Source of the DNA: an uncultured delta proteobacterium
GTDB taxonomy: Bacteria; Myxococcota_A; Polyangia; Haliangiales; Haliangiaceae
DNA length: 64,000 nucleotides
NCBI GenBank assembly: GCA_963764695.1
Contig: CAVXTW010000015.1
Location: forward strand, 413,845 to 477,844
Reading direction: 5' to 3'
Part shown: positions 37,981 to 64,000 of the stretch, piece by piece
Position numbering within the stretch: position 1 is the first letter of the stretch
How the letters are laid out: each line of letters opens with the position of its first letter
Notes under the pieces: generated by a model
What the model was told of the DNA's origin: nothing
The model's database searches: none
The model's input: the letters and a program-made list of their open reading frames with translations, nothing else
Program-made: the position numbers and the translations under genes

Positions 37981-37997
37981 CCCGGCGCCGCCGCGGT

Positions 37998-41425: not shown

Positions 41426-42841
<1,416 letters not shown>

Positions 42842-43075
42842 GAAGAGTGACCCCGGCGGGGCGCCCGGGAGGTTCGTGGGCGCGGCACCCATGGACACCG
42901 ATACGCCGGGAACGCCGCGCTGGATCGGTGTCACGGCGGCGTGGAGCCTGACGACAGCCAGATGGCGGCGTCGCGATTCTCGACATCGCAAGCGGTCGAG
43001 ATCGCGCGAAAAGCCGCCGGCACGGCCGCTGCATTGAGAGCCGGGACAACCGTCGTGCCTCTGGAGGGCTTCTCA

Positions 43076-44017
43076 ATGTTTTCGCGCAAGGTTCTGTCGC
43101 CGTTTCTCGCCGCCGCGCTCATGGCCGGCTGCGTGACCACCCAGGAAGAGACCCCGATCGTCAACGCGCTGCCCACGGCAGAGTCGGTGCAGATCAGGCT
43201 GCCGCAGGCAACGGCGCGATCGATCGGCCAGCTGGCCGACTACTACGTGCTGACCCGCCAGGTCACGCGCGACCTGAACGCCGGCGCCGCGTGGGTGCTG
43301 CTGGTCGTGCACGCGGTGGTGCAGTTCCCCGCCACCACGATCGAGGACAACGTCTACACCTGGGGGCCGTGGAGCGACGGCGCGCTCGACCCGGCCGAGT
43401 GGCAGCTCGTCGTGACCGCCAACGACGACGACACCTACGACTGGCAGCTCGAGGGCCGCAGCAAGTCCACGCCGGAGGACGGCTTCATCGCTGTCATCAG
43501 CGGCCACGCGGTGCCGGGCGACGAGCCGCATCGCGGCACCGGCGACTTCACCATCGACTTCGACGCCGGCGAGCGGGTCAACCCGATCGACAACACGCCG
43601 GACACCGGCCTGGTCAACGTGAGCTACGACCTCGAGAACCGCGACGGCACCGCCGCCAGCGTGACCATCCACGCCGAGGGCGTCGATTCGCTGGCCAACC
43701 CGGCCACGTTCGACTACTCGTACGCCGAGAACGACGACGGCTCGGGCGACTTCCAGTTCGCGCTCGAGGGCGATCTGGAGGAGAACGGCAGCTCCTCCGA
43801 GCAGGCCCTCATCCGCTCGCGCTGGCTCGCCGACGGCACCGGCCGCGCCGACGCGCTGCTTTCGGCCGGCGACCTGGGCGATCTCGAGGTCGAGGCCAGC
43901 GAGTGCTGGGACGAGCAGTTCGAGCGCACCTACTACACCGACTCGGTCAACTTCTCGCCGACCGAGGGTGACCCGGCCAGCTGCGCCTACGACGAGGTCG
44001 CGCTGCCCGCGTTCTGA
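43076..44017 (+). CDS. Lipoprotein, hypothetical
   Basis: MFSRKVLSPFLAAALMAGC lipobox; acidic body. Confidence 0.5.
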   Translation: MFSRKVLSPFLAAALMAGCVTTQEETPIVNALPTAESVQIRLPQATARSIGQLADYYVLTRQVTRDLNAGAAWVLLVVHAVVQFPATTIEDNVYTWGPWSDGALDPAEWQLVVTANDDDTYDWQLEGRSKSTPEDGFIAVISGHAVPGDEPHRGTGDFTIDFDAGERVNPIDNTPDTGLVNVSYDLENRDGTAASVTIHAEGVDSLANPATFDYSYAENDDGSGDFQFALEGDLEENGSSSEQALIRSRWLADGTGRADALLSAGDLGDLEVEASECWDEQFERTYYTDSVNFSPTEGDPASCAYDEVALPAF

Positions 44018-44114
44018 TCGTTCTTGAAAGTGTTTTTTTCGGCCCCGGAGCGCCCGCTTGACGCCTGCTGACGCGGCGTGTTACCAAGCCGATCGTTTCA
44101 ATCGGAGGACGAAG

Positions 44115-44468
44115 ATGGCCCAGATGCCCAAGGACGCCAAGGAGCTGTTCGACGTGCTGGTTCCCGAGGCGATCAAGAAGTTCCCGGACAAGGCGAAGGA
44201 AGTCAACGCGATCTATTGCTTCAAGATCACCGGTGACGGCGGCGGCACCTGGACCCTGAACCTCACCTCCGACCCGCCCACCTGCGTGCAGGGCGACACC
44301 GGCAACGGCCAGTGCACCGTCGAGGTCGCGCACGAGGACTTCAAGAGCATGTTCACCGATCCGCAGGTCGGGATGCAGCTCTACTTCCAGGGCAAGCTGA
44401 AGGTGTCGGGCGACCCGATGCTCGCGATGAAGCTGCAGCAGGTCTTCGACATGGCGCGGCCGGCGTAG
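44115..44468 (+). CDS. SCP2 sterol-carrier-like domain protein
   Basis: [17 protein letters not shown]...[13 protein letters not shown] is the SCP2 pattern. Confidence 0.7.
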
Positions 44469-44554
44469 CTGGTCTACCTCACGAGAACCGTGCAGCGTCG
44501 CGGGCGGGTGGCCATCCGGTCATCCGCCCGTTCGCATATGTGGAGGCGATGATC

Positions 44555-45712
44555 ATGGATGCGACCGCTCGACCGCTCGACGGGATCCGCGTGCTCGATC
44601 TCTCGCGGCTGTTGCCGGGCCCGTTCCTCACCATGGTGCTGGGAGACATGGGCGCCGACGTGGTGAAGATCGAGGACCCGCGCATCGGCGACTACATGCG
44701 CCAGATCCCGCCGGTCAAGGCCGGCATGTCGGGGCGCTTTCTGGCCGTCAATCGCGGCAAGCGCTCGCTCGCCCTCGACCTCAAGAGCGAACGCGGGCGC
44801 GACGCCTTCTTGAAGATGGTCGAGCGCGCCGACGTGGTCATCGAGAGCTTCCGGCCCGGCGTGATGGCTCGGCTCGGCGTCGGCTGGGAGGCGCTCGAGC
44901 GGCGCAACCCGCGCATCGTGCTGTGCTCGATCTCCGGCTACGGCCAGGACGGTCCGTACGTGGAGCGCGCCGGGCACGACCTCAACTACATCGGGCTGGC
45001 CGGCGTGCTGGCCATGGGCGGGGCCGCGGCCGGATCGCCGGCGATGCCGGGCGTGCAGATCGCCGACCTGGCCGGCGGCGCGCTGTGGGGCGCGACCGCG
45101 GTGCTGGGCGCCCTTGTCGGCCGCGGCACCACCGGACGCGGCGCGCACCTGGACATCTCGATGACCGAGGGCGCGCTCGCGCTGCTGTGCGCCGAGATGG
45201 GCAACCTGGACTCGGGCGGCGGCGTGCCGACGCGGGGCCGCGCCACCCTCAACGGCGGCCTGGCCTGCTACGGCGTGTACGAGACCGGCGACGGCAAGCA
45301 CCTCTCGGTCGGCGCCCTGGAGCCGAAATTCTGGCTCGCCTTCAACCGCGCCATCGGCCGCCGCGAGGACGTGAGCGAGCTGGTCGCGCCACCCGAGCGC
45401 CAGGAGAAGGTGCGCGCCGAGGTGCAGGCGATCCTGCGCACGCGCACGCGCGACCAGTGGGCCGAGATCCTCGCCGCCCACGACTGCTGCTGCGAGCCGG
45501 TGCTCGAGATGGACGAGGTCCTGGAGCATCCGCTGCACAGGGCACGCCACGTCTTCACCCAGGTGCAGGCAGGGGCCGACCAGGTGCTCCAGGTCCGCAC
45601 GCCGGTCGGCCCGGCCCGCACCGACCGCCTCGCCCCGCGCCTCGGCGAGCACAGCCGCGAGGTGCTGGCCGAGTACGGCTTCGACGAGACCGAGATCGCC
45701 GCGCTCTGCTGA
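44555..45712 (+). CDS. CoA-transferase family III protein (CaiB/BaiF / alpha-methylacyl-CoA racemase-like)
   Basis: [31 protein letters not shown]...[15 protein letters not shown], with the family's catalytic Asp region. Confidence 0.85.
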
Positions 45713-45719
45713 GGGCGGT

Positions 45720-46223
45720 CTAGAACGCCGCCTCGTCACTCTCGTCCGGCATCGGGTGCAATGTCAGCGTGGCCGAGATGCCGCCCGCCGTGCAGGTGCC
45801 GCGGCCGATCTGCAGGCGCTCCGCGGTCAGATCGATCACGCACTGCTCGCCACGGTGCTCTGCGATGAGCGCGCTGCCCGGGACCACGCGGATCTCGGCG
45901 ACCTTCGGGTCTGCGGTGGTCAGGATCCGCGCCTCGAGCTCACTGTAGTAGACCTCCACGCGCGGAAACAGACAGGCCGGCTCGTCCGAGCACTCGCGGT
46001 CGCGGCCCGGCATGTTGACGTGCAGCCGCACCTGGTAGTCGCGATCGAACGCGGGCCGGCACGCCATCTCCATGCAGACCGTATCCTCGGTGCAGATCGT
46101 CCGCAGATCGGGGCACGCCTCGATGTGCTCCCGTGCGTCCGGTTGGTCAACGGTCACGGCGTCGCTGCAGCCGGATGCAGGGAAGGCGAGCATTGCCGCC
46201 AGAAAGATGTTTCTCGTAGTCAT
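45720..46223 (-). CDS. Cys-rich lipoprotein, paralog A (167 aa)
   Basis: MTTRNIFLAAMLAFPASGC lipobox; 12 Cys; SD AGGAG upstream. Confidence 0.55.
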   Translation of the reverse strand: MTTRNIFLAAMLAFPASGCSDAVTVDQPDAREHIEACPDLRTICTEDTVCMEMACRPAFDRDYQVRLHVNMPGRDRECSDEPACLFPRVEVYYSELEARILTTADPKVAEIRVVPGSALIAEHRGEQCVIDLTAERLQIGRGTCTAGGISATLTLHPMPDESDEAAF

Positions 46224-46249
46224 TTGTTTCTCCTGATGCGGGCGCAGGG

Positions 46250-46705
46250 TCAGAGCGGCATCGGGTCCAGCACCATCGTGACTCCCACGTTGGTGCCGTG
46301 GCAGACGACGAAGCCGGTGCGCAGGCGCTCCGCCGTGAGCTCGACCGCGCACTGCTCGGACTCGGACTCGAAGTCGACGATCAACGAGCTGCCGGATCTC
46401 ACGTCGATCTCGGCGTCCTGTGGAATGACCTCCGTGATCGGCTCTGCGCTGTAGGAAACCGTCACCGGTCCAATCGGGCAGTCCAGTGTCACCGCGCACG
46501 GCAACCCGACGCCGATCCTGTACGCCGTGACGTGCACCTTGTAGGCGCGGTCGAATGCCGGCTCGCACTCCGCCTCGCCACAGATCGTGTCCCCGGCGCA
46601 CTCCATCCCCCGCTCCTCGCAGATGGATGGCTCGGGGCCTTCCTCGCTGCAGCCGGACGCGGACAGGGCCAGAACGGCCGCCAGGACGATGTTGTTCACT
46701 CTCAC
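46250..46705 (-). CDS. Cys-rich lipoprotein, paralog B (151 aa; GTG start)
   Basis: (GTG)RVNNIVLAAVLALSASGC. It is colinear with paralog A including the upstream ttgtt(t/c)ctcctgatgc SD region. Confidence 0.55.
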   Translation of the reverse strand: MRVNNIVLAAVLALSASGCSEEGPEPSICEERGMECAGDTICGEAECEPAFDRAYKVHVTAYRIGVGLPCAVTLDCPIGPVTVSYSAEPITEVIPQDAEIDVRSGSSLIVDFESESEQCAVELTAERLRTGFVVCHGTNVGVTMVLDPMPL

Positions 46706-46987
46706 TTGTTCCTCCTGATGCCGACCGATCGAGAAGCTCAGGTTTCGGTCGGCCCCGGAGTCCACGCGAGAAACGATCGGAGAAAGGACCACCCGTCGGA
46801 GGCGTCTCGATCACCCACCAGAAAAATGTTGGTGGGTTTCACGTGTTCCCCCTGATTGCGAGCCGATCGCGCGCCAAACAATAAATTTGCAGTCGGGCGC
46901 GAGTGCCATGTCGCAAAAGGCCGTCCGAAAGAGCCTCTCCGACAGTGGGGTGTTCATTGCCGGCGAAGAACTCGATGGGGGCTCGTC

Positions 46988-47617
46988 ATGGAGGACAGAG
47001 TGACGCGACCGCTTCAAGCACCCGCGGGTCGACAGGCGCGTTTGGCGCCGTGCTCGGCTCCGTGTGACGCTGCAGTAGCCATGACCGGCACGGGGGGGCC
47101 GCGTGGTCCGGACGATGGTCCGCCCGGTTCGCCCGGGAATGGACTGGCCGAGCATGCGCCCGCGCTGCGCGCGCTCGCCGCGATGCTGTGCCGCAACCCC
47201 GACGGGCGCGAGGACCTGGTCCAGGACACGTTCGAGCGCGCGCTGCGCCATCTATCAGGACCTCACACACCGGTGCGAAACACGCGGGCCTGGCTGGTCG
47301 CGATCCTGCGCAACGTCTTCATCGATCGAAAGCGCGCCGAGCACGCCACGACGGCCGACGTCGAGGACTGCGAGGCGCCGGAACCGGATCCGCAGCCGGC
47401 CTGGGCCGACGTCAACCTGGCGGACGTGCGCGCGGCCTGCCAGGAGATCGACCCGGCTCTGCGGACCGTCTTCGAGCTCCACTACCTGGACGGGCTGCAT
47501 TACCGCGAGATCGCGTTCCGGATGGATGTCCCGGAGAACACCGTGGCGAGTCGCCTGTTCCGGGCCCGCAAGGCCCTTCGGGACCGGCTGCTCGCGAAGT
47601 TGAGGAGGCCGTCGTGA
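46988..47617 (+). CDS. ECF-type RNA polymerase sigma factor
   Basis: Region 2 REDLVQDTFERALRHL...AWLVAILRNVFIDRKR; region 4 ELHYLDGLHYREIAFRMDVPENTVASRLFRARKAL. Confidence 0.75.
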   Translation: MEDRVTRPLQAPAGRQARLAPCSAPCDAAVAMTGTGGPRGPDDGPPGSPGNGLAEHAPALRALAAMLCRNPDGREDLVQDTFERALRHLSGPHTPVRNTRAWLVAILRNVFIDRKRAEHATTADVEDCEAPEPDPQPAWADVNLADVRAACQEIDPALRTVFELHYLDGLHYREIAFRMDVPENTVASRLFRARKALRDRLLAKLRRPS

Positions 47618-49392
47618 GAATCGAACCGAGCGGAGAAGAAATCCAGGCGCTGGTCGACGGCGAGCTGTCGCCAGAGGACGCCGCGAGGGTTCGCTCGGCG
47701 CTTGTCTGCGGAGGAATCCTGCTGCTCGAGCTCGACGAGTGCATGCAGATGGCAGCGCTCGCCTTCGAGCTACGCGAACAGGCCCGTGAGCTGGAGAGCG
47801 CGGTCCAGATCGAAAAGGGCCGCGTGCCCGTCGGTCCGTCCAACGTCATCCCCCTCAAGCGCCCGATCAAGCCGCGAGCGAAGACCTTCATGGCGATGGT
47901 CGCATCACTCGCGATGGCCGGCGCGGCCGCCATGTTCATCTTCCCGCGCCGCGGCCCGTCAGAGCCCGTTGTCGCCGTCGCCGATCCAGCCAGCGCCTTC
48001 GCCGGAGCACTCGCACCACGCCGCTCGATGGCGCCGCGTCTGTCGTGGCCGGCCGCCGATCGATTCCGACCATACGACACGGCCCGAGCCGGCGGCACGG
48101 GGGAACGCCCGGCCGAGGCGCTGTCGTACGAGCTGCTGGGCAAGGTCGAGAAGCTCGGCGATCCGCGTGCCATGACCGCGGCCAAGGTCCTCGGCGGAGA
48201 CACGACCCAGGCCCGCAACCAGCTCGTCCTCGCCAGGCCGTCTCCCGACGCCAGCAGCGACCGCGCGGCCATCGCCCTGGTCGAGGGCAAGCCCGAGGAC
48301 GCCCTGCTCTCCGCGTCCGCAGCGGTCGAGTCGGATCCGCGCCACATCCAGGCGACCTGGAACCGCGCCCTGGCCCTCGAGCGACTGGGCATGCCCCTCA
48401 CGGCAGCCGAAGCATTCGAAGCAGTGGCAGCCCGCCGCGAGCCCGGCTGGAGCCAGGAAGCTTTGGAGCGCGCCACGGCCCTCCGCGCCCAGTTCGAGCG
48501 ACGCAAGTCCGCCTGGGAAGCCGCCAACACCGTCGGAGCCCGCCTCGTCGCCGGCGCCATGGTCAACAACGCGACGCTGGCCGCCTACCCCAGCCTCATG
48601 CGCCGCTACTTCTACGAAGCGGTGCGAACGGCGCCGTCGGCCGACCGCGTGAAGGCACTGCGCCCGATCGCATCGACGCTCGACGCCCGCTTCGGCGGCA
48701 GCCACCTGACCGCCTCCATCGATCGCATCGCAAAGTCCGACTTCCGCCGCCGCGCCCCTCTCGCCGCCCGCTACGCCGTGCTCGCCCGCCGCGAGATGAA
48801 GGACCCGGTCGCGGTGCAGACGCTGCTGCGCGATCTGCGTGCCGCCCGCCAGAAGGACATCCTCCTCGGCGCCCTTCTGCACGCCGGCCCGACCGACTGG
48901 CGACCGGACAAGGCCCAGCTGAACGAGTACCTCGCGCTCGCGCGGGCCAGCACCGATCCATGGTTCCCGCTGGAGGCAGATGTCAATCGCGCCTGGCACG
49001 TGCTCTGGGCTCGTGACTTCCCGCTCGCGGTGACGGTGCTCAGCGGAGCTGCAGCGCGCTGCGACACCGACAGTATCGACGAGCTCTGTCTGGACGTCTT
49101 CCGGCTTCTCACGCACGCCCATCTACAGCTTCATCGCCCTGCCCAGGCGGGGCGAACGCTCGAGAGAGCTCGCGAGCTGGCGCGCGTATCCGCCAACGTC
49201 GCCCGCGATGCAGAACTGCTCGAGTACGCGCAGCTGGTCGCCACCTTCCGCGATCATGTCTCCGGCGACTTGTTCGCCCTGTCAACGGCGTACGTCGACG
49301 AGTGGAGCCGACAGAGCGCGGACTGCGCTGATGTAAGCAAGGCGCACGAGTGGAAGGCGACGGCGCTCATCAACCAGCATCGACATGGATGA
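47614..49392 (+). CDS. Anti-sigma-factor-like N-terminus fused to a long helical/TPR-like domain
   Basis: GTG overlaps the sigma stop (GTGA). The N-terminus VRIEPSGEEIQALVDGELSPEDAARVRSAL is an anti-sigma hallmark. It has a TM helix MAMVASLAMAGAAAMFIF and ~480 aa of helical repeats. Confidence 0.6.
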   Translation: MRIEPSGEEIQALVDGELSPEDAARVRSALVCGGILLLELDECMQMAALAFELREQARELESAVQIEKGRVPVGPSNVIPLKRPIKPRAKTFMAMVASLAMAGAAAMFIFPRRGPSEPVVAVADPASAFAGALAPRRSMAPRLSWPAADRFRPYDTARAGGTGERPAEALSYELLGKVEKLGDPRAMTAAKVLGGDTTQARNQLVLARPSPDASSDRAAIALVEGKPEDALLSASAAVESDPRHIQATWNRALALERLGMPLTAAEAFEAVAARREPGWSQEALERATALRAQFERRKSAWEAANTVGARLVAGAMVNNATLAAYPSLMRRYFYEAVRTAPSADRVKALRPIASTLDARFGGSHLTASIDRIAKSDFRRRAPLAARYAVLARREMKDPVAVQTLLRDLRAARQKDILLGALLHAGPTDWRPDKAQLNEYLALARASTDPWFPLEADVNRAWHVLWARDFPLAVTVLSGAAARCDTDSIDELCLDVFRLLTHAHLQLHRPAQAGRTLERARELARVSANVARDAELLEYAQLVATFRDHVSGDLFALSTAYVDEWSRQSADCADVSKAHEWKATALINQHRHG

Positions 49393-50653
49393 TGCTCGCC
49401 ACGAGATGACCGCGGGCGGCGCGGGCACATGCAAGGCTCCATTCACGGCGAATCGCGCGTTCGTTCTCGCGCAGCTGCTCAGCGACGGCGGCGACGACGC
49501 GGCCGTGCGAGCGTTGCGGAGCGACATCGCTGCGCTGCGCACATCGGGCACGGTCAGCCCGGGTGAACGCGTATTCCTCGACCACGCCGAGGGGCGCTTG
49601 CTCATTCATCGCGCGCCGGCCGAGGGCCGAACTCTTCTGCGTCGCGCCATCGAGTCCGCTGCCACTCTTCCCGAAGACCGTGAAGCGGAGAGGGCGCGTT
49701 CGTACAGCTACTCGGCTCTGATCGAGGAAGCCGCGTCGCGCGACGCCAACAGCGAGGCGCTCGCGCTCTTGGCCGAGAACCTCAACCTACCGGCGCCGGA
49801 GCGATGCGCTCTGGGCGCATCGATGGAGGACTCGGTAGTGTTCGTGGCGCGTGATGGGCATGGAGCCGTGATCGGTGCTCGCAGCGTGATGGCGCCCGGC
49901 GAGCCAGCCGGTGCACGTCCAGTGCCCGAGGAGATCCGGGCGGCCCTGGTCGGCTGCGAAACGGTCGACGTGTTCGCACGGCAGCCGTACTATGGTCGGC
50001 CCGAGCTTCTGCCACGTGACATGGCCTGGCAGTTCCGGACTGGAACTCCGGCCAAGGCAACCCCGAACACTTCGTCTGAGCCGGGCACGTCGGGACGGCA
50101 CGTGGTGGTGGCCAACATTATCCCGCCGCCCGGGCTCGAGCTCGCGCCGCTTCGCCCCGTAGTGGAGTCGCCAGGCACGACCCTCATCGAAGGCGCAGCG
50201 GCGACCCCCGAGCGGGTGATGGCCGCTGCGTCGGATGCGTCGTTCCTCGAGATCCACGCACATGGCCTGCTGGGCAGAGCAGAGTCGGACACCTCGATGC
50301 TCGTCCTCGCGCCCGACGTGAAGGGTCGCCATACGCTGCAGGGCGACGACATCCGGCGCGCGCGGCTGCGTGGCGCACCGGTGGTCGTCCTGGCGGCCTG
50401 CCATGCATCGGCCATCGGAGGATCCTTCCACTCGACGTGGGGCCTGGCCGACGCATTTGCCGAGGCGGGCGCAAGCGCGGTAATCGCCTCACCGGACGTG
50501 ATCCAGGACGTGAGCGCGCCGGCGTTCTTCACTGCGTTGCGTGGGCGCATCGCAGCCGGTCAGCTTCCGGCCGCGGCGTTGCGAGACGAGCGCATGGCTC
50601 CGCATGATCCGGACGAGCGGGCCTGGATCGATCGGCTCGTCGTCTTTCGCTGA
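49385..50653 (+). CDS. CHAT-domain (caspase-like peptidase) protein
   Basis: FLEIHAHGLLG ... VVVLAACHASAIG is the His/Cys dyad in CHAT spacing. The start overlaps the upstream stop by 8 nt. Confidence 0.7.
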   Translation: MDDARHEMTAGGAGTCKAPFTANRAFVLAQLLSDGGDDAAVRALRSDIAALRTSGTVSPGERVFLDHAEGRLLIHRAPAEGRTLLRRAIESAATLPEDREAERARSYSYSALIEEAASRDANSEALALLAENLNLPAPERCALGASMEDSVVFVARDGHGAVIGARSVMAPGEPAGARPVPEEIRAALVGCETVDVFARQPYYGRPELLPRDMAWQFRTGTPAKATPNTSSEPGTSGRHVVVANIIPPPGLELAPLRPVVESPGTTLIEGAAATPERVMAAASDASFLEIHAHGLLGRAESDTSMLVLAPDVKGRHTLQGDDIRRARLRGAPVVVLAACHASAIGGSFHSTWGLADAFAEAGASAVIASPDVIQDVSAPAFFTALRGRIAAGQLPAAALRDERMAPHDPDERAWIDRLVVFR

Positions 50654-50689
50654 GGTAGGTACGGGAACTGATGAGGGAGGAGGGTGCGA

Positions 50690-50926
50690 ATGGCCCACGG
50701 TGATGATTGTGCGCTGAGCAGAGAAAGCGCGTCCCCACGAGACCCCTGCCGAAGGTGTCACCTGGGGACAGTGGGATCAGATGGACTGTGTCCCTACGCG
50801 AACATTGGCGTAGGTCCGATTGGAGGTCCAAAGGGACTGGCCCTTCTGATCGCCGTGCAGGCGCAAGACCACCGGGATGCTGCCGACCACCTGGACGAAG
50901 TGCTGGAGATCATCAAAAGCTGCTGA
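50690..50926 (+). CDS. Small Cys-rich hypothetical protein (78 aa) in a GC-poor spacer
   Basis: Strong SD GGGAGGAGGG 6 nt before the ATG; translation MAHGDDCALSRESASPRDPCRRCHLGTVGSDGLCPYANIG...EIIKSC. GC3 is ~60%, well below neighbours. Confidence 0.3.
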   Translation: MAHGDDCALSRESASPRDPCRRCHLGTVGSDGLCPYANIGVGPIGGPKGLALLIAVQAQDHRDAADHLDEVLEIIKSC

Positions 50927-50995
50927 TCGTGCCGGCAACCTGTAGGGCAGCCGCTGGCTCGCGAAGAAGCGCCGGTACCGCCGTCTCTCCTGTGA

Positions 50996-52290
<1,295 letters not shown>

Positions 52291-52294
<4 letters not shown>

Positions 52295-52917
52295 GACGGG
52301 AGCGACCGGCCGGCGGCCGCGGTCCGCTGCTGGCGCAGGTCCCGCCCGGTGTCGTCACCGACCTGCTCGAGGCGCGGAGGCGCGGCGATCCGGTGGCGGA
52401 GAGCCAGCTCCTGCCGCTGGTCTACAGCGAGCTTCGGCGGCAGGCGGCCTGGTTCCTGCGCGGCGAGCGCCCCGATCACACTCTCGTGGCGACCGATCTG
52501 GTCCACGAGGTCTACCTGCGCATGACGGACCAGGCGGCGGCATACGAGAACCGCTCCCAGTTCTTCGCCCTGGCCGCGCGCATGATGCGTCGCGTGCTGG
52601 TCGACCACGCGCGAGCGCGCGCCGCGGCCAAGCGGCCGCAGCCCGGTCTGCAAGTCACGTTCGAGGAGAAGGAGCTGCCCGCCGCCGAGCCGCGGGCGTT
52701 CGAGCTGCTCGCCCTCGACGCGGCGCTGACCGAGCTCGCCGCCTTCGACCCGCGCCAGGCCCGCCTGGTCGAGCTGCGCTACTTCGGCGGCCTCACCTCG
52801 GCGGAGGTGGCCGAGGCGCTCGGCGTGTCGGCGACGACAATCAAGCGCGAGTGGAGCCTGGCCCGGGCCTGGCTGTATCGATTTCTCACCCAGCGGGACG
52901 CGACGAATCCGGGCTGA
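52291..52917 (+). CDS. ECF sigma factor of the kinase-associated type
   Basis: ATG overlaps the kinase stop (ATGA); LVATDLVHEVYLRM (region 2.2-like), C-terminal LTSAEVAEALGVSATTIKREWSLARAWL. Confidence 0.8.
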
Positions 52918-52927
52918 GGCGCGTCGA

Positions 52928-53917
52928 TCACTCGCGATAGCCGGCCGCGAAGTCCAGGACGCAGACCGTGCCGAATCGCTTGTGCGCCGCGCAGCCGACG
53001 CCGAAGACCCGGTACTCCGACTCGAGCAGGTTGACGCGGTGGCCGCGCCCGATGACGCCGTCGTCGATGAACAGACTCATCACCATCACCGCGGCGCCGC
53101 CCCAGCCGGTGCCGATGTTCTCGCCGGACAGCCCCACGACCCGGCCATGGCGCTCCATGCGCTGGAGCGGCTGGCTGCCGTCGCGCCCGTCGTGCTCGAC
53201 GGTGCCGGCGCGGCCAATCTCGATGGCGTGAGCGCGCGCCCCCCGCGACAGACCGGGCGAGAGCCGGAGCTCCGCCCGCGGCTTGGCGCGCCGCGCCGCC
53301 TTGATCGCCTCGTCGACCGCCCGCACCCCCTCGACCGTGAGGATCGGCGCGTCGACGCCGGGCAGGTAGAGGTAGTTCTCGTGGTAGTTGCGCCGGTGCC
53401 GCTCGAGCGTCCCGGCATAGCCGCGCGGGTCGCGGCGCAGCGTGTTGACCGCCGCCACCATGCCGGCCTCGAAAGGCGTGAGCCCCGCCCCTCGCCCTCC
53501 TCGATTCGCCGCCTGCGCGCCGACGCCCTCGTCCGAGCCCGGCCCGGCCGATCCTGTCCCTGGCCCTGCCCCCCTGCCCGATCCCGACTCCGGTCCGGAC
53601 TCCGAGCCCCACACTGACTCCAATCCGGGCCCCGCCCGCGATCCGTCCTCCGACCCCGACTCGGGCCCCGACCCATCGTCCGGCCCCGACCCATCGTCCG
53701 GCCCCGGTCCGTCGTCCGGCCCCGATCCATCGTCCGCCCCCGGTCCGTCGTCCGGCCCCGGTCCATCTTCCGGTCCCTCTGACTCCGGTCCCCACTCCTC
53801 CCCGCCCTCGCCGCCCTCCCCGTACGCCCCGGGCGGCCCGGAGTATCGCGGCTGCGCGGCCGGCGCCACACATCCTGCCGCTCCGACCAGCGCCGCGATC
53901 GTCCACAGACGGAACAT
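52928..53917 (-). CDS. CAP/SCP/PR-1-like domain lipoprotein with a Gly-Pro-Asp tandem-repeat linker
   Basis: MFRLWTIAALVGAAGC lipobox; repeats GPDDGPGPDDGSGPDDGS; C-terminal CAP domain (...GENIGTGWGG..., HRVNLLESEYRVFGVGCA). Confidence 0.75.
   Translation of the reverse strand: MFRLWTIAALVGAAGCVAPAAQPRYSGPPGAYGEGGEGGEEWGPESEGPEDGPGPDDGPGADDGSGPDDGPGPDDGSGPDDGSGPESGSEDGSRAGPGLESVWGSESGPESGSGRGAGPGTGSAGPGSDEGVGAQAANRGGRGAGLTPFEAGMVAAVNTLRRDPRGYAGTLERHRRNYHENYLYLPGVDAPILTVEGVRAVDEAIKAARRAKPRAELRLSPGLSRGARAHAIEIGRAGTVEHDGRDGSQPLQRMERHGRVVGLSGENIGTGWGGAAVMVMSLFIDDGVIGRGHRVNLLESEYRVFGVGCAAHKRFGTVCVLDFAAGYRE
53640..53790. repeat. Imperfect 18-bp tandem repeats (ccatcgtccggccccgac) encoding (GPDDGS)n inside the CAP-domain gene
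   Basis: At least 6 consecutive near-identical units are visible in the sequence. Confidence 0.6.
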
Positions 53918-53928
53918 CGTCCTCGATC

Positions 53929-54855
53929 CTACCGGTTCTTCCAGCGCGGGTCGGCCGGATTGGTGAGCGCCGCGCGCACCCGGCCGAGCGGCTTGTCCTG
54001 CCCTGCCGCGTACGCGCGCACCGCGCCGTCGCGGATGCCGGCCAGGTCGAGCCCCTGCGCGAAGCCGGTCACGGCACCCTCGAACGCATGCGCGCCGGCG
54101 AACAGCAGGCTGCGCGTGAACAGGAGCGGCACCCGCCGGGGGCCAGGCACCGCCGGGACCAGGTAGTCCTCGGTGATGCACGCCATCGCGATCGTCCCGC
54201 GGCGCGGCGCCCGGCCGCTCGGCTTCGGCCAGCGAAAGTCGCCCACGTCCATCCACCCGTTGTGCCCGACGAACGCGACCAGGCGCGCGCCGCCGCCTGC
54301 CAGAAGCTCGGTCCCGTCCGGCAGCTCGATGCGACGCACCTCACCGGCCGCAAACAGGTCAGCGGCGTAGGCGGCCATGGCGGAGCCTATCGACTCGCCG
54401 CGCCAGGCGTGCGCCACCACGTAGACCGGGAACCGCGCGCGTGCGCCGCGGGAGCGCAGTCGCCCCGACGGTGTCATCCACCGCCGCCACACGCGCAGCT
54501 CGAGCACGTCCGGCTGCGGATTCCGCACCCGCAGCACCTCGTTCCAGCCCGAGCCGCGCCGACCGAACCAGCCGCGAAAGCCGCCGCTGGTGGCCCAGTA
54601 GAGATTTCCGCCCGGGTCGTCGCCGTCGCCGAGCCGACCGCCCCCGCAGCGGAGCACGTCGTTGTCGCACAGCGGGACGTGGACCTGCACCACCAGCGGT
54701 CGCCCCGCGGCGATGTCGGCCGCCACGTCAGCCTGCAGATCCGCCAGCCACGCATCGGCATCCGCCGCGCTCTGGCCCCACGCGACACCTCGGCCACACA
54801 ACAAGGCCACCGCCGCAGCCATGAGCGCGGCGCCGCGCGAACGGACCCGTGGCAT
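53929..54855 (-). CDS. Secreted hypothetical protein
   Basis: Signal MAAAVALLCGRGVAWGQSAADADA; no family assignment. Confidence 0.45.
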   Translation of the reverse strand: MPRVRSRGAALMAAAVALLCGRGVAWGQSAADADAWLADLQADVAADIAAGRPLVVQVHVPLCDNDVLRCGGGRLGDGDDPGGNLYWATSGGFRGWFGRRGSGWNEVLRVRNPQPDVLELRVWRRWMTPSGRLRSRGARARFPVYVVAHAWRGESIGSAMAAYAADLFAAGEVRRIELPDGTELLAGGGARLVAFVGHNGWMDVGDFRWPKPSGRAPRRGTIAMACITEDYLVPAVPGPRRVPLLFTRSLLFAGAHAFEGAVTGFAQGLDLAGIRDGAVRAYAAGQDKPLGRVRAALTNPADPRWKNR

Positions 54856-54960
54856 CCGGGTTGTGACGCGCGGCGAGCGAAAAGGACTTCCGCCGACAGC
54901 CGACCACGCCAGCCCCGACCACGCGAGCCCGACGACCCGCGACCGAACAGCTCCCGGCAG

Positions 54961-56071
54961 CTAGCGCCGGGCGAACCGGAGCTCGATCGCCCCGACCTCG
55001 CTACCAGCCTCTGCACCAGCGCTCAGAAGCTCTCCGACATCCGCCGCCGGCAGTCCCCGGCCGCGCAGGTCCGATACCAGGTGGCCCGCTCCGTCGGCCG
55101 GCACCGCAAGCAGCAGCCCGCCGCTGGTCTGGGCATCGCAGGCCAGGAGCAGCGCGAGCTGTCCATCCGCATCCAGCTGATCGCGCCCGTGCAGCGACGG
55201 GGCGATGAAGTCGAGGTTCGACTTGCTGCCGGCCGGGACGAGGCCGGCAGCCGCGTGCTCGCGCGCCCCGGGAAGGATCGGCAGCGCGCCAAGATCGATC
55301 GCCGCCCTCAACCCCGAGCCGCGGAGGATGTTGCGCAGGTGACCGAGCAGGCCGAAGCCCGTCACATCGGTGCACGACGTCACACCGGCGCGGCGGCCCG
55401 CCTCGAGCGCACCCTGGTTGTGCGTCGTCATCGACAGCACTGCCGCGGCCGCCTCCTTCTCGGAAGCCACCTGCTTCTTGATCGCCTGGCCGACGATGCC
55501 GGTCCCCAGCGCCTTGCTCAGCACCAGCCGCTGACCGGCCCGCGCCGTCCGGTTCGAGAGGATCGCGTCCGGCGACACCTCGCCGGTCACCGACAGGCCG
55601 TACTTCACCTCGGCGTCGCGCACCGTGTGGCCCCCGACGATGGCGACTCCCGCCTCCGCGCAGGCCGCCGCGCCGCCGCGCAGGATCGCCTCCAGCACCG
55701 TGGACGGCAGCTTGTCGTCGGGGAAGAACACAAGGTTGAGCGCGTAGAGCGGCCGCCCGCCCATCGCGTAGACGTCGGAGATGGAGTTGGTGGCCGCGAT
55801 GCGCCCGAACGTCTCCGGGTCGTCCACCAGCGGCGCGATGACGTCCGCGGTCATGACCAGCGCGCGGTCGCCGCCGCTCAGACGCACGACCGCCGCGTCG
55901 TCCGCGAAGTCGGTAGAGACCAGGACGTTCGGATCACTGCCGGCGGAGCTTGTGATTCCGCCGGCATGCATCCGCTCCAGGACCTGGACCAGGTCCCCGA
56001 TGCGCAGCTTGGCGGCTCAACCACCTCCCCGCGCGTACTCGGTCAGGCGGACAGGAGCCTCGTGCGCAGTC
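54961..56071 (-). CDS. selD: Selenide, water dikinase SelD, encoded as a selenoprotein (in-frame TGA = Sec at 55997..55995)
   Basis: VRLTEYARGGG-TGA-AAKLRIGDLVQVL aligns with E. coli [25 protein letters not shown]. The downstream sequence is full-length SelD (...DFADDAAV...GGHTV...DVTGFGLLGHL). The ATG at 56071 is 2 nt out of frame with the Sec-containing frame. Confidence 0.75.
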
Positions 56072-56143
56072 GGCTGCTTCGACTTCGACATGCGGTGCAG
56101 CCTAGCAGAGCGCCAGACCGGACCGCATCGGCACAGCGAGGCG

Positions 56144-56413
56144 CTACTCGAGCTGACGCTGACGGCGCCGGCGAGTCAGGAGCACCAGGGCGGGAACCCA
56201 TCCGGCCGCGACCAGCGCCGCGAGACCGAGCGGGCTGAGGTCATCGGCCCCGTGCGAGCTCAGGCTGGTGTCGGATGACGCAACCAGAGCCGCCGCCGGA
56301 CGCCTGTCAGCCCCAGGTGAGGCGCTGGCATCGGAGGGGCGAAGAAAGAAGAGAGCAGAGAGGAGGAGCAGGGCGACAAGCGCCTTGCGTATCGGCATTA
56401 CGCTCACGAGCAT
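56144..56413 (-). CDS. Small exported protein with a C-terminal hydrophobic helix plus Arg cluster (sortase-substrate-like tail)
   Basis: Signal peptide MLVSVMPIRKALVALLLLSALFFLRPSDASA; C-terminal LGLAALVAAGWVPALVLLTRRRRQRQ. Codon usage is atypical (ttt, ctt, tct), so the call is tentative. Confidence 0.35.
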   Translation of the reverse strand: MLVSVMPIRKALVALLLLSALFFLRPSDASASPGADRRPAAALVASSDTSLSSHGADDLSPLGLAALVAAGWVPALVLLTRRRRQRQLE

Positions 56414-56620
56414 ACATCCGGGGCCTGTGGGTGGCCGAGAAAATCCCCAAATCCGATATTTTCATATATATTACCGCCTTGCGGGCGCATCGGGGGTCCG
56501 ACTGTAAGGCAACAAACGCTCCGCCATTGAATGGTCAACTGGGCCATTCGTTCTCGGGGGTTGCCCGAATGGATCGCCGCAATTTCGTGTGATATGGAGA
56601 ACTTCTCGGGAGGTCAATCC

Positions 56621-57118
56621 ATGCGAGGCATGAAGACTCTGGTGCTGGCACTCTCGCTTGTCGCCCTGGTGGGCGCGGCGTGCGGCGGCAAGAACAAGAA
56701 GCGGACCGCGGGCGGCGGCGACGGCGACACCGGCGAGAACTTCGACGGCTCGGGCTCCGGGTCGGGCAAGAAGAAGGGCAGCGGCAAGGATCCGTCGCTC
56801 CAGGACGTCATCTACTTCGCCTTCGACTCGTCGGACCTCGACGAGGAGTCGCGCAAGAAGCTGTCGGAGAACGCCGACTGGCTCAAGAAGGATCCGGCGC
56901 GCACCCTGACCATCGAGGGGCACACCGACGAGGTGGGGACCCCCGAGTACAACCTCGGTCTGGGCGAGCGGCGCGCGCGGTCAACCAAGGACTACCTGGT
57001 CCGCCTCGGCATCCAGGAGAAGCGGGTGTCGATCATCACGTACGGCGAAGAGCGACCGGCAGGCAGCGACGACAACAGGAATCGTCGCAGCATGTTCCTC
57101 GCCACCAAGAAGAAGTAG
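56621..57118 (+). CDS. pal: Peptidoglycan-associated lipoprotein (OmpA-family, Pal-like)
   Basis: MRGMKTLVLALSLVALVGAAC lipobox, Gly-rich linker, OmpA_C domain (IEGHTDEVGTPEYNLGLGERRARS). Confidence 0.8.
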   Translation: MRGMKTLVLALSLVALVGAACGGKNKKRTAGGGDGDTGENFDGSGSGSGKKKGSGKDPSLQDVIYFAFDSSDLDEESRKKLSENADWLKKDPARTLTIEGHTDEVGTPEYNLGLGERRARSTKDYLVRLGIQEKRVSIITYGEERPAGSDDNRNRRSMFLATKKK

Positions 57119-57142
57119 CCGCTCCGGGCGCCCGCCCGGCGC

Positions 57143-59482
<2,340 letters not shown>

Positions 59483-60872
59483 CCACGGCGCGGCGTCTGC
59501 CCAGCCAGAAGAGGAGCAGCTGGCCTCGCCGCTCATGCGCCCGGATCCGTTCGGGCCGCTGATCGTGATCGAGGCCATCGAGGTGGTCGGCAACACCTGG
59601 ACCGCCGAGGACCACATCCGGCGCGCGGTGCCGGTGCGCCCCGGCGAGAAGCTGCGCGCCGGCGACGAGCGACTGCGCGCGGCTCGCTTCAAGGTGCTGG
59701 CGCTGGGCTACTTCCGCGAGGTGGATCTGCGCCTGCGCAGGGGCAGCCGGCGCGGACACGTGGTGCTGACCGTGCGCGTGGTCGAGCGCGGCACCGTCGT
59801 GCTCAACCGCATGTTCTTCGGCAACACGCTCATCACGCCGTGGTGGGCAGGCCTCGACCTGACCGAGCGGAACTTCTTCGGCACCGGTGTCGGCGTGGGC
59901 GGCGCGTTCGTCGTCGCCGGCGAGGGGGATGCGACCGGCGCCGACGCGCAGAAGGCCTATCAGCTGCGCATCGAGGACTCGTCCGTGCTCGGCAGCACGT
60001 TCGGGGCGCACCTGTCGGGCTACTACGCCGACGCCAGCGAGCCGTACCGCGTGGCCGGGGCCACCGACGACGGGGCGGCGGCCAACTATGCGGCCTTCGA
60101 CTACCGACGCGCCGGCGGGCGGGCCGGCCTGACTGTCAATCTCGCGCCGCTCTCACGTCTGACCGGCATGGCCCGCTTCGAGAACGTCCACGCCGAGGTG
60201 CCGGCCGCGCCGACCCGGACGCTGACCGACGGAACCGAGGTGCCGGTCGACCTCCTGCTCGAGGACGGCGACAGCCGGGTGGCCACGCTGGGCCTCCTGT
60301 TCGAGCGCGACACGCGGCCCGACCCGATCCTGCCGTTCGCCGGCGACCACACGCTGGTGCTGGCCGAGGGCGGGGCCGGCTTTCTCGGCTCGAGCTACGA
60401 CTTCGCCACCGCCCTGGTCCGCCACGAGCGCTGGTGGTCCGTGCGGCCCGGCCACGTGCTGTCGCTGCACATGACCGGCGGCGCGGTGGTGGGCGACGCG
60501 CCGCTGTTCGAGCGGCTGCACGTCGGCGACATCGACCGCATGGTGTCGGCGCGCGCGCTCGGCCTGGTCGTGTCGACCACGCCGCCGTTCGATTTCTTCG
60601 ACACCGGCTCGGACGAGGTGACCTACGGCGAGGTGGCCGGGCTGGTCGAGGGGCAGTACGCGTACCGGCTGTTCCGCGGCAAGCGCGGCGTCTACGGCGG
60701 CGACCTGTTCGTCGGCGTCGGCCTGTGGACGCTGATGTCGACGCGCGACATCGGGGTCGACAAGCCGACCCTTCCGGTCAACCTCCTGCTCGACGCGGGC
60801 CTCCGCCTCGACACCGAGATCGGCATCTTCGAGCTGAGCCTGGCCAACGCGCTGGGCCGGGTTCCGCTGTAG

Positions 60873-61528
60873 TGCAGCTGGCGCGCGTCATCGCGCTCTG
60901 CGTCTGCATGGTGGTCGCGGTGCGGCCGGCCGCGGCCCAGAGCGACGACAGCGACATCGTGGTGCGGCGGATGGGCTTCGCCGAGCGCGGCCGGCATCTG
61001 GTGCTGACCACGTCGTTCACCGAGATCTTCGATCGCTCGGCGTTCGAGAAGATCTCGAGCGGCTTTCCGACCACGGTGGTGGTCCGGATCTACGTCTATC
61101 GCAAGGCGCGCACCGACGCGCCGGTGTCGCTCGCCTTGCTCGAGCTCGAGGTCGTCTATGATCTGTGGGACGAGGTGTACGTCGTGAGGTCGCGCGGGCC
61201 TCTGGGCGAGAAGCAGCTGCGCACGCGCAGCCGGGCCCAGGCGGTGCGGGTGCTGACCGAGCTGGATCACATGCCGATCGCGCCGCTCGACCGCCTGCCG
61301 GTCGGGCCGCATCATTTCATCGCCATGGTGGTGGAGCTCAACCCGGTCTCGCCCGAGCTTCTGGCCGAGATGCGGCGCTGGTTGAGCCGGCCGGCCGGCG
61401 AGACCTCGCTCGACTCGAGCTCGTCGTTCTTCGGCTCGTTCGTGTCGGTGTTCGTCAACCCGAAGCTGGAACAGGCCGACCGGACGCTGCGCATCCGCTC
61501 GCAGGCCTTCTACCGGGCGCCGCGATGA
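60873..61528 (+). CDS. DUF4390-like periplasmic protein (sensor-kinase-associated)
   Basis: GTG start immediately after the upstream TAG; signal VIALCVCMVVAVRPAAAQ. It is translationally coupled to the downstream histidine kinase (ATGA). Confidence 0.5.
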
Positions 61529-63039
61529 AGCCGGTCGAGGAGAGAGAGGGCCGGCGCCTCGGTCTGCAAGTGAAGGTGGTGACGGTGCTGCTCGTCATCG
61601 CGCTGACACCGCTCCTGGTCTCTGCCCTGCTGGTCGATCAGATCGCGCAGGTGGCGCAGAACTTCGCCTCGCACGAGGCGGACAAGATGCGCGAGCCGCT
61701 GGGCGAGGCGCAGAAGGTCTACCAGCAGCTCATCGAGAGCAAGAAGCGGATGTACCGGCACATGGCCGAGCAGCTGGCCCAGGCGGTGTCGGTCGGCGCG
61801 GCGCTGCGCGACGAGGGCACGCAGGGCTTCGCGGGCGCGGCGCGGGCGCTGATGGCGGAGGAGCCTGATCTTCTGCGCGCGGCGCTGCGGCGTCCCGGCG
61901 GCGAGCTGCTCGTCGAGGAGAAGCGAGTGAAGCCGGGGCCGGGCGGGCCGCGTCGCTTTCGCGAGTACGCGGTGAGCCGCCCGGCCGGCGACGGCGCCGC
62001 GGTCGAGCTCGCCTTTGCCGCCGATGTCGAGCTTCTCGATCAGCACCGCGAGGTCGGCCGCGTGCTCGACGACAGCCAGCGCATCGACCGGGTGCGCAGC
62101 TCGCTGCCGCGCTCGTACCGGCTCGGCTTCATCGCGCTCGTCGGCGGCGTGGTGGTGCTGGTGACGGCGACCGGCATCCTGTTCGCGCGGCGGCTGACCG
62201 GGCGCATCGCCGTGCTGGTCTCCGGGACGCGACGGGTGGCGGGCGGCGATCTCGACGCGAAGGTCGCCCTGGCCGGACGCGACGAGCTGGGCGAGCTGGC
62301 CGGCGCCTTCAACCGCATGGTCGAGGACCTCAAGAAGGACCGCCAGCAGATCCTCTACCTGCAGAGGATCGGCGCGTGGCAGGACGTGGCGCGGCGGCTG
62401 GCCCACGAGATCAAGAACCCGCTCACGCCGATCCAGCTGGCCGTGCAGCAGCTGGTGTCGAGCTACAGCGGCGACGATGCGCGGCACCAGAAGATGCTGG
62501 CCGACGCGGCCGAGATCGTCGGCGAGGAGATCCACGGGCTGCGCCGCCTGGTGGACGCGTTCAGCGCGCTGGGGCGGCTGCCGCCGGCCGAGCCGCGCCC
62601 GCTGCCGATGGCGCAGCTGGCCGACGATCTGGGCAAGGAGGCGCACCTGGCCGGCCGCCTGGAGCTGGCCGAGCCGCCGTCGCCGGTCACGGTGTCGGGC
62701 GACCGGCTGCTCCTGCGCCGGCTGCTGGCCAACCTGATCGAGAACGGGATCCACGCCGGGGAAGCGGCCGGCAAGGGCGGCCGCGTGGTGATGCGCTGGT
62801 CGGCGGATCTCGGTCGCGGCACCGCGCGCATCACGATCGACGACGAAGGGCCGGGTGTCGCGGCGGCCGATCGCGAGCGGATCTTCGAGCCGTACTTCAC
62901 CAGCAAGGAGACCGGCACCGGGCTGGGACTTGCGATCGCGAAGAAGATCGCGCTGGACCACGGCGGGAGTCTTGTGGCTGATGAGGACGCGGCGCCGACG
63001 GGAGGGGCGCGGTTCGTGCTTACCTTGCCGCTTGCCTGA
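61525..63039 (+). CDS. Sensor histidine kinase (2 TM, HAMP, HisKA, HATPase_c; NtrY-like)
   Basis: HAMP LAGAFNRMVEDLKK, H-box LAHEIKNPLTPIQL, N/G boxes LIENGIHAGE / DEGPGV / GTGLGLAI. Confidence 0.85.
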   Translation: MKPVEEREGRRLGLQVKVVTVLLVIALTPLLVSALLVDQIAQVAQNFASHEADKMREPLGEAQKVYQQLIESKKRMYRHMAEQLAQAVSVGAALRDEGTQGFAGAARALMAEEPDLLRAALRRPGGELLVEEKRVKPGPGGPRRFREYAVSRPAGDGAAVELAFAADVELLDQHREVGRVLDDSQRIDRVRSSLPRSYRLGFIALVGGVVVLVTATGILFARRLTGRIAVLVSGTRRVAGGDLDAKVALAGRDELGELAGAFNRMVEDLKKDRQQILYLQRIGAWQDVARRLAHEIKNPLTPIQLAVQQLVSSYSGDDARHQKMLADAAEIVGEEIHGLRRLVDAFSALGRLPPAEPRPLPMAQLADDLGKEAHLAGRLELAEPPSPVTVSGDRLLLRRLLANLIENGIHAGEAAGKGGRVVMRWSADLGRGTARITIDDEGPGVAAADRERIFEPYFTSKETGTGLGLAIAKKIALDHGGSLVADEDAAPTGGARFVLTLPLA

Positions 63040-63074
63040 GGGCGTTGGCGTGCGGGGCCACCGCCGTACAAAAC

Positions 63075-63125
63075 AAACAGGAAGCAGGTAACAGGTGACA
63101 GGGAACAGGGAGCGGGCAATGGGAT
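63075..63125. repeat. Seven tandem heptamers (RRCAGGN): AACAGGA AGCAGGT AACAGGT GACAGGG AACAGGG AGCGGGC AATGGGA
   Basis: Read directly in the convergent intergenic region between the histidine kinase and the 63167..63649 gene. Confidence 0.5.
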
Positions 63126-63166
63126 GAACGGGGCTGTCGCCTTCGTCGCTGCGACCAGCTTGGTCT

Positions 63167-63649
63167 CTAGGTCGAGCGGCTCCCGATCGGATGAAGCTTT
63201 CCTGCGGCCCGCAGGCAGAATCCTCCCTCGGGCGATTCCTCGATGCGTTGGGCGAGGATGTAGTAGGCAGGTGTCGTGATGCGCGCGGTGAGGCGGCCGC
63301 TGCGGACGCGGCAGTAGAGGGCGTTGTCGGGGCTCGCGGCGAGGCTCGCGTAGTCGAGCTCCTCCTCGGTCTCGTCGTTGAGCGCGAGGATCGCGCGGTC
63401 GCCTTCCCAGCGGGCTGACAGGGCCAGGAGCTCGGCGTCGTCGACGTCGACGTAGGCGTAGCGCTTCTCGTCGAGGCGCAGGATCGGGCGGCCGTCGTCG
63501 AGGCGGTCGAGCCAGCGCAGCAGCGCGAGCTGGAAGCCGCGGTGCGTGACGACCGCGCCCTCGTGCCAGAAGCGGCCTTCGCGATCCAGACGGATGCCCG
63601 TCTGGCGGAGGCGCTCGATCATCTCGGGCGTGGGCCGGAAGTCGGACAC
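63167..63649 (-). CDS. Hypothetical protein (160 aa)
   Basis: Good codon usage; no family assignment. Confidence 0.5.
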
Positions 63650-63741
63650 GTTCCCGGATCACTGGAGGGGCGCGGCCGGAGATCCGACGCGCCCGGATTC
63701 AAAGCGGGCGCGCGACGCGCCCAGCGACGTTTCAGCGCCCG

Positions 63742-63936
63742 TCAGTCCTCGAGCGCGCGGATGCGGTCCTTGGTGGCCAGCTTCATCTTCTTGAGCTGGG
63801 CGTACTCAACTTGTTCTGCAGAGGTCAGGGATATGTGGCGGTCGAGCTGGCGGAGTCGCTCCTTGATGGCGCGATGCTCCGCTGTCAGTCGGGTCAGGAT
63901 ATCGTCCTTCGACGCACCAATCTCCATACGCTCCAC
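63742..63936 (-). CDS. DUF465 (YdcH-like) small coiled-coil protein
   Basis: [47 protein letters not shown] matches the YdcH/DUF465 pattern. GTG start with SD GGAGGTGA. Confidence 0.6.
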
Positions 63937-64000
63937 CGCTTCACCTCCGAGCTTAGAGGATGCGATCGCTACGCCCGAGCTACTCGTGAGCCGCGCCGCG

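Follow-up and report, generated by a model that had tools for sequence, protein, structure and literature searches.

A 64,000-nucleotide stretch of DNA from an uncultured delta proteobacterium of the Haliangiales (contig CAVXTW010000015.1 of assembly GCA_963764695.1, positions 413,845 to 477,844; hereafter, the window) carries on its minus strand a selD gene whose reading frame is interrupted at codon 25 by a UGA. The most probable reading, to which a probability of about 0.9 is given on the basis of sequence comparison, is that this selD is functional, that selenocysteine (Sec) is the catalytic residue of its product, and that the UGA is decoded with the help of a hairpin located downstream of it. 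Sec-type SelD proteins with a Sec insertion sequence (SECIS) inside the coding region have long been known, and the window gene is a new and unannotated example that adds nothing conceptually new.

Judged by its sequence, the gene is a selD (coding for selenide, water dikinase, also known as selenophosphate synthetase), in agreement with a preliminary description of the window made from the letters alone. Scored against NCBIfam with Cys in place of residue 25, the read-through product reached 336.4 bits with TIGR00476, the selD equivalog (cut-off 125), and 307.7 bits with NF002098, the SelD equivalog (cut-off 299), and it has the SelD domain architecture, with AIRS (PF00586) at residues 64-172 and AIRS_C (PF02769) at residues 184-358. 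This family membership, which is shown by the profiles, predicts that the protein synthesizes selenophosphate from selenide with ATP. The alignment with the Escherichia coli SelD (PDB 3u0o) covers residues 11-359 (E = 1e-67) and places GGG-U25-AA-K28 of the window protein over GAG-C17-GC-K20 of the E. coli enzyme; GGG-U-AAK aligns likewise with SSG-C-AAK of the Aquifex aeolicus SelD (chain 2yye). Because the UGA is aligned to E. coli Cys17, it corresponds to the catalytic Cys/Sec position, as had been recognized beforehand from the flanking SelD motif, and Lys28 is the equivalent of E. coli Lys20. The in-frame TGA noticed in the preliminary description is real, although its coordinates were 20-31 nt off: the triplet at 55997..55995, where it had been placed, is GGG, and the lone internal stop of the selD frame is the TGA at 56019..56017. 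The gene span had been closed at 56071, which cuts off the ATG start codon at 56091, and the SelD body 3' of the TGA has 351 codons instead of the 330 residues that had been counted.

A scan of one genome per species yielded 80 related loci (numbered with an L in what follows), all of them from Myxococcota (Kofleriaceae, Haliangiales and Nannocystis), the nearest relatives of the window selD being those in L002 (89% identity) and L003 (84%). In the 79 scored homologs the catalytic codon is TGA in 48, TGC in 27 and TGT in 4, and the 80th (L059) has Cys too at this position, which makes 48 TGA and 32 Cys in total. On a SelD tree from which the N-terminal region was excluded, the TGA-type genes are intermixed with the Cys-type ones, indicating that several independent switches between Sec and Cys have taken place. 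The peptide upstream of this codon is conserved, and this conservation, together with the alternation of TGA and Cys, bears out the earlier proposal that selD is a selenoprotein gene here. In the 49 TGA-type genes (the 48 homologs plus the window), the ten codons 5' of the TGA encode a nearly invariant R-L-T-Q/E-Y/F-A-R-G-G-G, and their third positions are free: Arg is encoded by CGC in 27 genes, CGT in 14, CGG in 3 and CGA in 3, and Leu by CTC in 25, CTG in 21 and TTG in 3. Pairwise comparison of these ten codons across the 49 genes gives 4166 synonymous versus 1211 non-synonymous differences, and all differences of the window from L002 and L003 in codons 10 to 24 are synonymous. Conserved residues with varying third positions imply that the stretch 5' of the UGA is translated in frame with the SelD body, and this pattern of substitution shows both sides of the UGA to be under coding constraint.

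The palindrome GGACCTGGTCCAGGTCC is found in a single copy in the window, at 55996..55980, and begins 20 nt past the UGA; it had been detected previously, but was placed about 25 nt downstream and at 55949..55965, a span that reads GCCGGCGGAATCACAAG. The suggestion that it could form a bacterial SECIS stem has held up better than its position. In the bacterial SECIS model (PMC13188914), the loop has 3-9 nt, the upper stem 4-16 bp and the UGA-to-loop distance is 16-37 nt; one of the first two loop bases is a G, mostly with a G or U after it, and the minimum free energy (MFE) is -7.5 kcal/mol or lower. The hairpin of the window agrees with the four criteria of this model (loop and stem size, loop G, a 27-nt spacing and MFE); its loop is G-U-C and, with the closing G-C pair opened, G-G-U-C-C, which fits N1-G-[G/U]-N-N2. 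Folding of the minus strand and comparison with bacterial models, a check that had been recommended in the preliminary description, was run on the 60 nt from the UGA and gave a long imperfect hairpin (MFE -32.8 kcal/mol, z = -2.87, matched by 2 of 200 shuffles) whose apical part conforms to the model. Taken alone, this apical hairpin of 19 nt (-11.6 kcal/mol) was matched by 7 of 200 shuffles; from these tests, the hairpin by itself is only moderately better than chance, and the strong evidence is comparative. Its energy is -12.4 kcal/mol when 22 nt are considered and -16.2 kcal/mol with 32 nt, and its ensemble frequency is 0.70 in the 19-nt, 0.87 in the 22-nt and 0.73-0.77 in the 48- and 60-nt contexts. 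The extended lower stem predicted around it is the same in L002 and unconserved in the other loci that share the hairpin, and it is weakly supported.

For the comparative analysis, two fixed hairpin registers (H1 and H2) were scored in each locus, using the 31 Cys-type orthologs as a natural control. H2, the register of the window, has a GACCUG-GU[C/U]-CAGGUC core with its loop 27 nt after the UGA; G and U are fixed in this loop, and its third base is C or U among the relatives. Twelve TGA-type genes have it in perfect form (those of the window, L002, L003, L044, L050, L054, L065, L070 and the Nannocystis members L005, L025, L048 and L068), and L058 and L081 keep 5 of its 6 pairs around a loop of 5 nt. 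H1 (CGGCUC-GG[U/C]-GAGCUG), the register of most Sec-type genes of Kofleriaceae/Haliangiales, has its loop at a distance of 18 nt from the UGA; all 35 remaining TGA-type genes carry it in perfect form (for example, L013:850-915), and its closing pair covaries (C-G in 24, U-A in 5, A-U in 1 and G-U in 2). A perfect 6-bp hairpin with a G-first loop is therefore present in 47 of the 49 TGA-type genes (the remaining two have 5 of 6 pairs) and in 0 of the 31 Cys-type genes; this kind of hairpin goes with TGA and never with Cys codons. The hairpin energies differ accordingly, with -9.17 +/- 1.32 kcal/mol in TGA-type versus -3.78 +/- 2.58 kcal/mol in Cys-type genes (Mann-Whitney p = 3.5e-12), whereas the energies of the whole 63-nt fold (-25.7 versus -23.7 kcal/mol) are uninformative in such GC-rich sequence. 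In the H1 group, single-sequence folding favors a competing hairpin near the UGA; this competitor departs from the model in loop G and in spacing, and folding from the alignment selects H1. Folding and comparison support the prediction that the window hairpin is a bacterial SECIS of the SelB type.

The two registers are related to each other. The 3' arm of H1 consists of the same bases as the 5' arm of H2, which makes the registers mutually exclusive, and the loop of the H2 clade lies 9 nt (three codons) further downstream than that of the H1 majority. The genes of the Nannocystaceae group mostly combine 5 of 6 pairs of H1 (4 of 6 in L005 and L065) with 6 of 6 pairs of H2 (5 of 6 in L058), and look like an intermediate state between both. 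A relocation of the SECIS by three codons, via an arm swap within one orthologous selD lineage, may have taken place, although this scenario is put forward tentatively, as somewhat short of an even chance.

Three further observations concern the codons around the UGA and the hairpin. The Gly codon immediately before the UGA (codon -1, 56020..56022 in the window) is GGT in 48 of the 49 TGA-type genes versus 4 of the 31 Cys-type genes, in which GGC is usual (Fisher p = 5e-16, a statistic that ignores kinship). This preference is held despite a GC content of about 70% and is not explained by base pairing, because a C would pair better; it suggests a context requirement just 5' of the UGA. The Arg codon at +5 is CGG in 46 of the 49 TGA-type versus 14 of the 31 Cys-type genes, a bias explained by the earlier hairpin (H1). 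Finally, the Cys-type gene of L011 keeps a perfect GACCUG/CAGGUC stem about 24-38 nt past its TGC codon, with an ACC loop instead of GUC, and this stem looks, from its sequence, like a fossil SECIS left after a Sec-to-Cys change, of a kind known in other families (PMC1794560).

The mechanism proposed for the window gene is taken from the established bacterial pathway, composed of SelA, SelB, SelC and SelD. As the ribosome nears the UGA at 56019..56017, SelB-GTP carrying Sec-tRNA(Sec) would bind the hairpin at 55997..55979 through its G/U apical loop, which lies 27 nt past the UGA, and Sec would be delivered to the A site, yielding an enzyme of 376 residues with Sec25 in its glycine-rich N-terminal loop (GGGUAAK). 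In this flexible loop, Sec25 would act as the selenium-binding catalytic residue, and when Sec-tRNA is scarce translation would end after 24 residues. Because SelA needs selenophosphate to produce Sec-tRNA(Sec), the synthesis of SelD would depend on its own product, an autoregulatory loop that has long been proposed for Sec-type SelD.

Several results weigh against decoding of this UGA as Sec. The preliminary description had called for a search for selA, selB and tRNA-Sec, which it expected in the genome, and no such gene was found in the window or in the 10 kb past its right edge, where no selenium gene of any kind appeared. Using the E. coli proteins (from NC_000913) as tblastn queries, neither selA, selB nor selU was found in the 64-kb window, L002 or L003, and ARAGORN found no tRNA-Sec in the window, the 80 related loci or the right-edge extension. 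Rfam returned neither a SECIS nor a tRNA-Sec family for the whole window at gathering score, and no SECIS family over 55900..56100 at E <= 10, although Rfam may lack a model suited to bacterial selD SECIS elements; the matches obtained were two ordinary tRNAs and chance miRNA matches. The statistics of the TGA-hairpin association ignore shared ancestry. In the 14 carriers of H2 the stem pairs hardly vary and no compensatory change is seen, so that covariation in this register speaks neither for nor against the hairpin. Synonymous constraint on the three stem codons of H2 is only suggestive, with a commonest-codon frequency of 0.93-1.0 versus a gene-wide mean of 0.76, and the single loop codon (0.71) has no extra conservation.

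The relatives supply part of what the window does not contain. According to the tblastn searches, selA and selB adjoin a Sec-type selD in L005, L025, L048, L068, L044 and L058, all belonging to the group with the window hairpin, an arrangement that cultured Nannocystis exedens DSM 71 and N. pusilla share; in Nannocystis and two Myxococcales metagenome-assembled genomes they are directly upstream of selD (at about 4000-9950 of the loci), and in L058 selB is divergent from selD and convergent with selA. In L033, a selA (453-1646) lies about 8 kb upstream of selD. The lineage formed by the window, L002 and L003 has lost this linkage. SelB proteins with SelB winged-helix domains are abundant in Myxococcota (the SelB search gave 7999 matches, none of them on a contig of 764,270 bp), and SelU was not found by tblastn in any locus. 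With an intact Sec-type gene here and this machinery in relatives, selA, selB and selC are presumably present elsewhere in this genome. The best SelB candidate from long-read data (P0101) was considered as the protein of this very organism and rejected, since it comes from sample ERZ25039505 and not from ERZ25039516. ARAGORN also reported long 'tRNAs' of 83-96 nt at L019:7157-7246 (Thr-CGT), L032:17066-17161 (Ala-TGC) and L058:9391-9473 (Gly-CCC), none with a TCA anticodon; they are probably false positives, because the one in L058 sits inside selB.

Four other explanations of the UGA were weighed. The one that survives best, still very improbable, is that the UGA is read through without Sec, for example through near-cognate decoding as Cys or Trp, perhaps with stimulation from the hairpin, and that selA and selB have been lost from the organism. 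The Sec machinery of this genome is inferred rather than observed, which leaves room for such a reading, but the hairpin fits the SelB-type model, G-U loop included, and relatives with an identical hairpin carry selA and selB beside selD. We know of no bacterial precedent for this kind of read-through; a precedent outside bacteria is offered by Hymenoptera, for which non-Sec read-through of a UGA-containing SPS gene has been proposed (PMC4561486).

That the UGA simply terminates translation, leaving a pseudogene or only a truncated protein that starts at Met42 (ATG at 55971), is less probable still. Gene callers do annotate exactly this 336-aa open reading frame (ORF), and the failure to find Sec machinery in the sequence covered (the window, its right-edge 10 kb, L002 and L003) points the same way. 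However, the 24 in-frame codons 5' of the UGA are conserved as protein, with synonymous variation, in 49 genes, and the truncated product would lack the glycine-rich loop bearing the equivalents of Cys17 and Lys20, both of which have been found essential by mutagenesis of the E. coli SelD. Furthermore, a nonsense mutation would not be expected to recur at the catalytic codon in 48 species, each time with a SECIS-like hairpin.

A sequencing or assembly error, in which the TGA stands for a TGC or a TGT, is not credible, given that the same TGA is carried by the ENA version of this genome (ERZ25039516 contig_1386, 764 kb). Differences of 0.3-4.4%, with numerous indels, separate the window from the ENA contig, as is typical of long-read assemblies; nevertheless, the TGA is present in both versions and in 48 independently assembled relatives, including cultured Nannocystis genomes. 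The differences between versions include many indels (4-6 gap openings around selD and 43 further out), when a specific substitution would be needed here, and the TGA is accompanied by the Sec-specific hairpin and by GGT at codon -1. That this organism reads TGA as a sense codon for Trp or Gly is ruled out, because TGA is an ordinary stop codon that ends 18 of the 29 long, confident ORFs of the window (those with high GC at third codon positions), and a scan of the window for genes with in-frame TGA gave only the gene pair at 27766 described below.

Decoding as Sec places the window gene in a well-described family. Bacterial SelD proteins containing Sec are exemplified by those of Haemophilus influenzae, Aquifex aeolicus, Anaeromyxobacter dehalogenans and Acetomicrobium mobile, and the window gene is like them in family, in the position of Sec in the glycine-rich loop and in having a coding-region SECIS just past the UGA; the Aquifex chain 2yye has Cys where the window SelD has the predicted Sec, G-[C/U]-A-A-K being common to both. 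The E. coli SelD (3u0o) has the same domains and conserved motifs, but its residue is Cys17 and hence no SECIS is needed. The E. coli fdhF SECIS is the reference hairpin for SelB binding, with an apical loop containing G-G-U-C. Both this element and that of the window (loop U-GGUCC-A) are coding-region stem-loops directly 3' of the UGA, whereas the window hairpin, as predicted, is without the bulged U in the upper stem, has another stem sequence and belongs to an unrelated host gene. The Sec forms make up 19% of prokaryotic SelD, always with Sec at this position (PMC4561486), and SelD is, after FdhA, the second of the two most widespread bacterial selenoprotein families, Anaeromyxobacter dehalogenans (also a member of Myxococcota) being listed with a Sec-SelD (PMC1794560). 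The loop of the window hairpin, at 27 nt past the UGA, is further away than that of the Acetomicrobium SelD SECIS (17 nt; PMC13326102) and that of most Kofleriaceae relatives (18 nt). The eukaryotic SEPHS2/SPS2 proteins are orthologous, with Sec at the homologous position and the same dependence on their own selenophosphate (PMC4561486), but their SECIS is a kink-turn in the 3' untranslated region, served by SBP2 and eEFSec, instead of a coding-region hairpin for which reading by SelB is predicted.

Table 1. Positions of the selD gene, its predicted Sec codon and the associated hairpin in the window.
Feature	Position	Strand	Description and basis
selD coding sequence	54961..56091	minus	ATG 56091..56089, TAG 54963..54961, 376 codons; by translation
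Predicted Sec codon UGA, residue 25	56017..56019	minus	motif GGG-U-AAK; alignment with SelD homologs
24 N-terminal codons 5' of the UGA	56020..56091	minus	absent from public gene calls; codon-variation analysis
Truncated 336-aa ORF from Met42 (ATG 55971)	54961..55971	minus	ENA gene call
Apical SECIS hairpin (predicted), GGGACCUG-GUC-CAGGUCCU	55979..55997	minus	8 bp with GUC triloop, or 7 bp with GGUCC loop; folding
Apical loop G-U-C, predicted SelB contact	55987..55989	minus	27 nt downstream of the UGA
Extended imperfect lower stem around the apical hairpin, predicted	55960..56016	minus	begins 1 nt past the UGA

In the window, selD stands alone. Upstream of it, on the opposite strand, there is a gene for an OmpA-family lipoprotein, followed by those of a Ser/Thr kinase, a DUF4390 protein and a histidine kinase, and downstream there are genes for two unknown secreted proteins and then for an extracytoplasmic function (ECF) sigma factor with a kinase. 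The upstream block of the histidine kinase, the 700-aa DUF4390 protein and the Ser/Thr kinase occupies 57143..63100. Of the 80 loci, 62 have the kinase in synteny with selD and 43 have the DUF4390 protein, Sec-type and Cys-type loci alike; the query for the histidine kinase, garbled by coordinate drift, had no matches in the related loci. The two unknown downstream genes and the OmpA-like gene are common to L002 and L003 only, and neighbor conservation across the 80 loci brought out no selenium-specific neighbor of selD. Just upstream of selD there is also an uncalled 89-aa ORF (56144..56413, minus strand), whose conservation is limited to L002 (88%); its N-terminus looks like a signal peptide, and at its C-terminus a hydrophobic segment precedes RRRRQRQLE, an arrangement reminiscent of a C-terminal sorting tag. 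Elsewhere, the window codes for a RecD2-type helicase, acyl-CoA dehydrogenases, an oligopeptide ATP-binding cassette (ABC) transporter, serA/serC-like genes and TolB/TolQ, among others, with no selenium-related genes among them. The sole other match of the in-frame-TGA scan, at 27766, was rejected as two adjacent acyl-CoA dehydrogenase genes in one frame; this tandem pair (26534..28963, minus strand) is parted only by a TGA directly followed by an ATG (27766..27764).

The window and the ENA contig_1386 seem to represent a single long-read genome in two versions, which differ in assembly or polishing. They were aligned over 35720..64000 of the window (L001/L085/L086), and are 99.5-99.7% identical near selD; past about 50.7 kb the identity is 95.6-98.2% and gap openings number up to 43. 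The segment 50724..50911 of the window is unaligned (187 nt versus 218 nt), and the coordinates of genes drift by 38 nt between both versions. In L002, the ATG that matches the start of the window selD (L002:9990-10070) does not share the frame of the UGA and the SelD body, and no canonical start comes after the upstream in-frame TAG; this reflects either an assembly indel or a different start site.

The reading of the UGA as Sec has a direct consequence for annotation, since the public gene calls for this selD and its closest relatives start past the UGA and describe an enzyme without its catalytic loop. The closest database relatives of the window SelD have 311-339 aa and cover 84-89% of the full protein. 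The NCBI call for the L003 homolog (P0123, DATFRY010000668.1) begins with 'MGDLVQVLE'; an Ile codon (ATC) that comes after the UGA and before the SECIS hairpin seems to have been taken as a non-ATG start, which results in a SelD without the catalytic loop; misannotation owing to the Sec codon is frequent in SelD (PMC13326102). Once corrected, the Sec codon marks this Kofleriaceae-like soil bacterium, together with about 60% of the sampled related species, as Sec decoders that need selenium. The mosaic of Sec and Cys genes with two SECIS registers in this clade could provide a small natural dataset with which to study how SECIS elements evolve and to train predictors of selenoproteins. If both registers are functional, these genes would form a natural series of relocation of a coding-region SECIS without loss of Sec decoding, and this series, if true, would be accompanied by a Sec-specific GGU codon directly 5' of the UGA.

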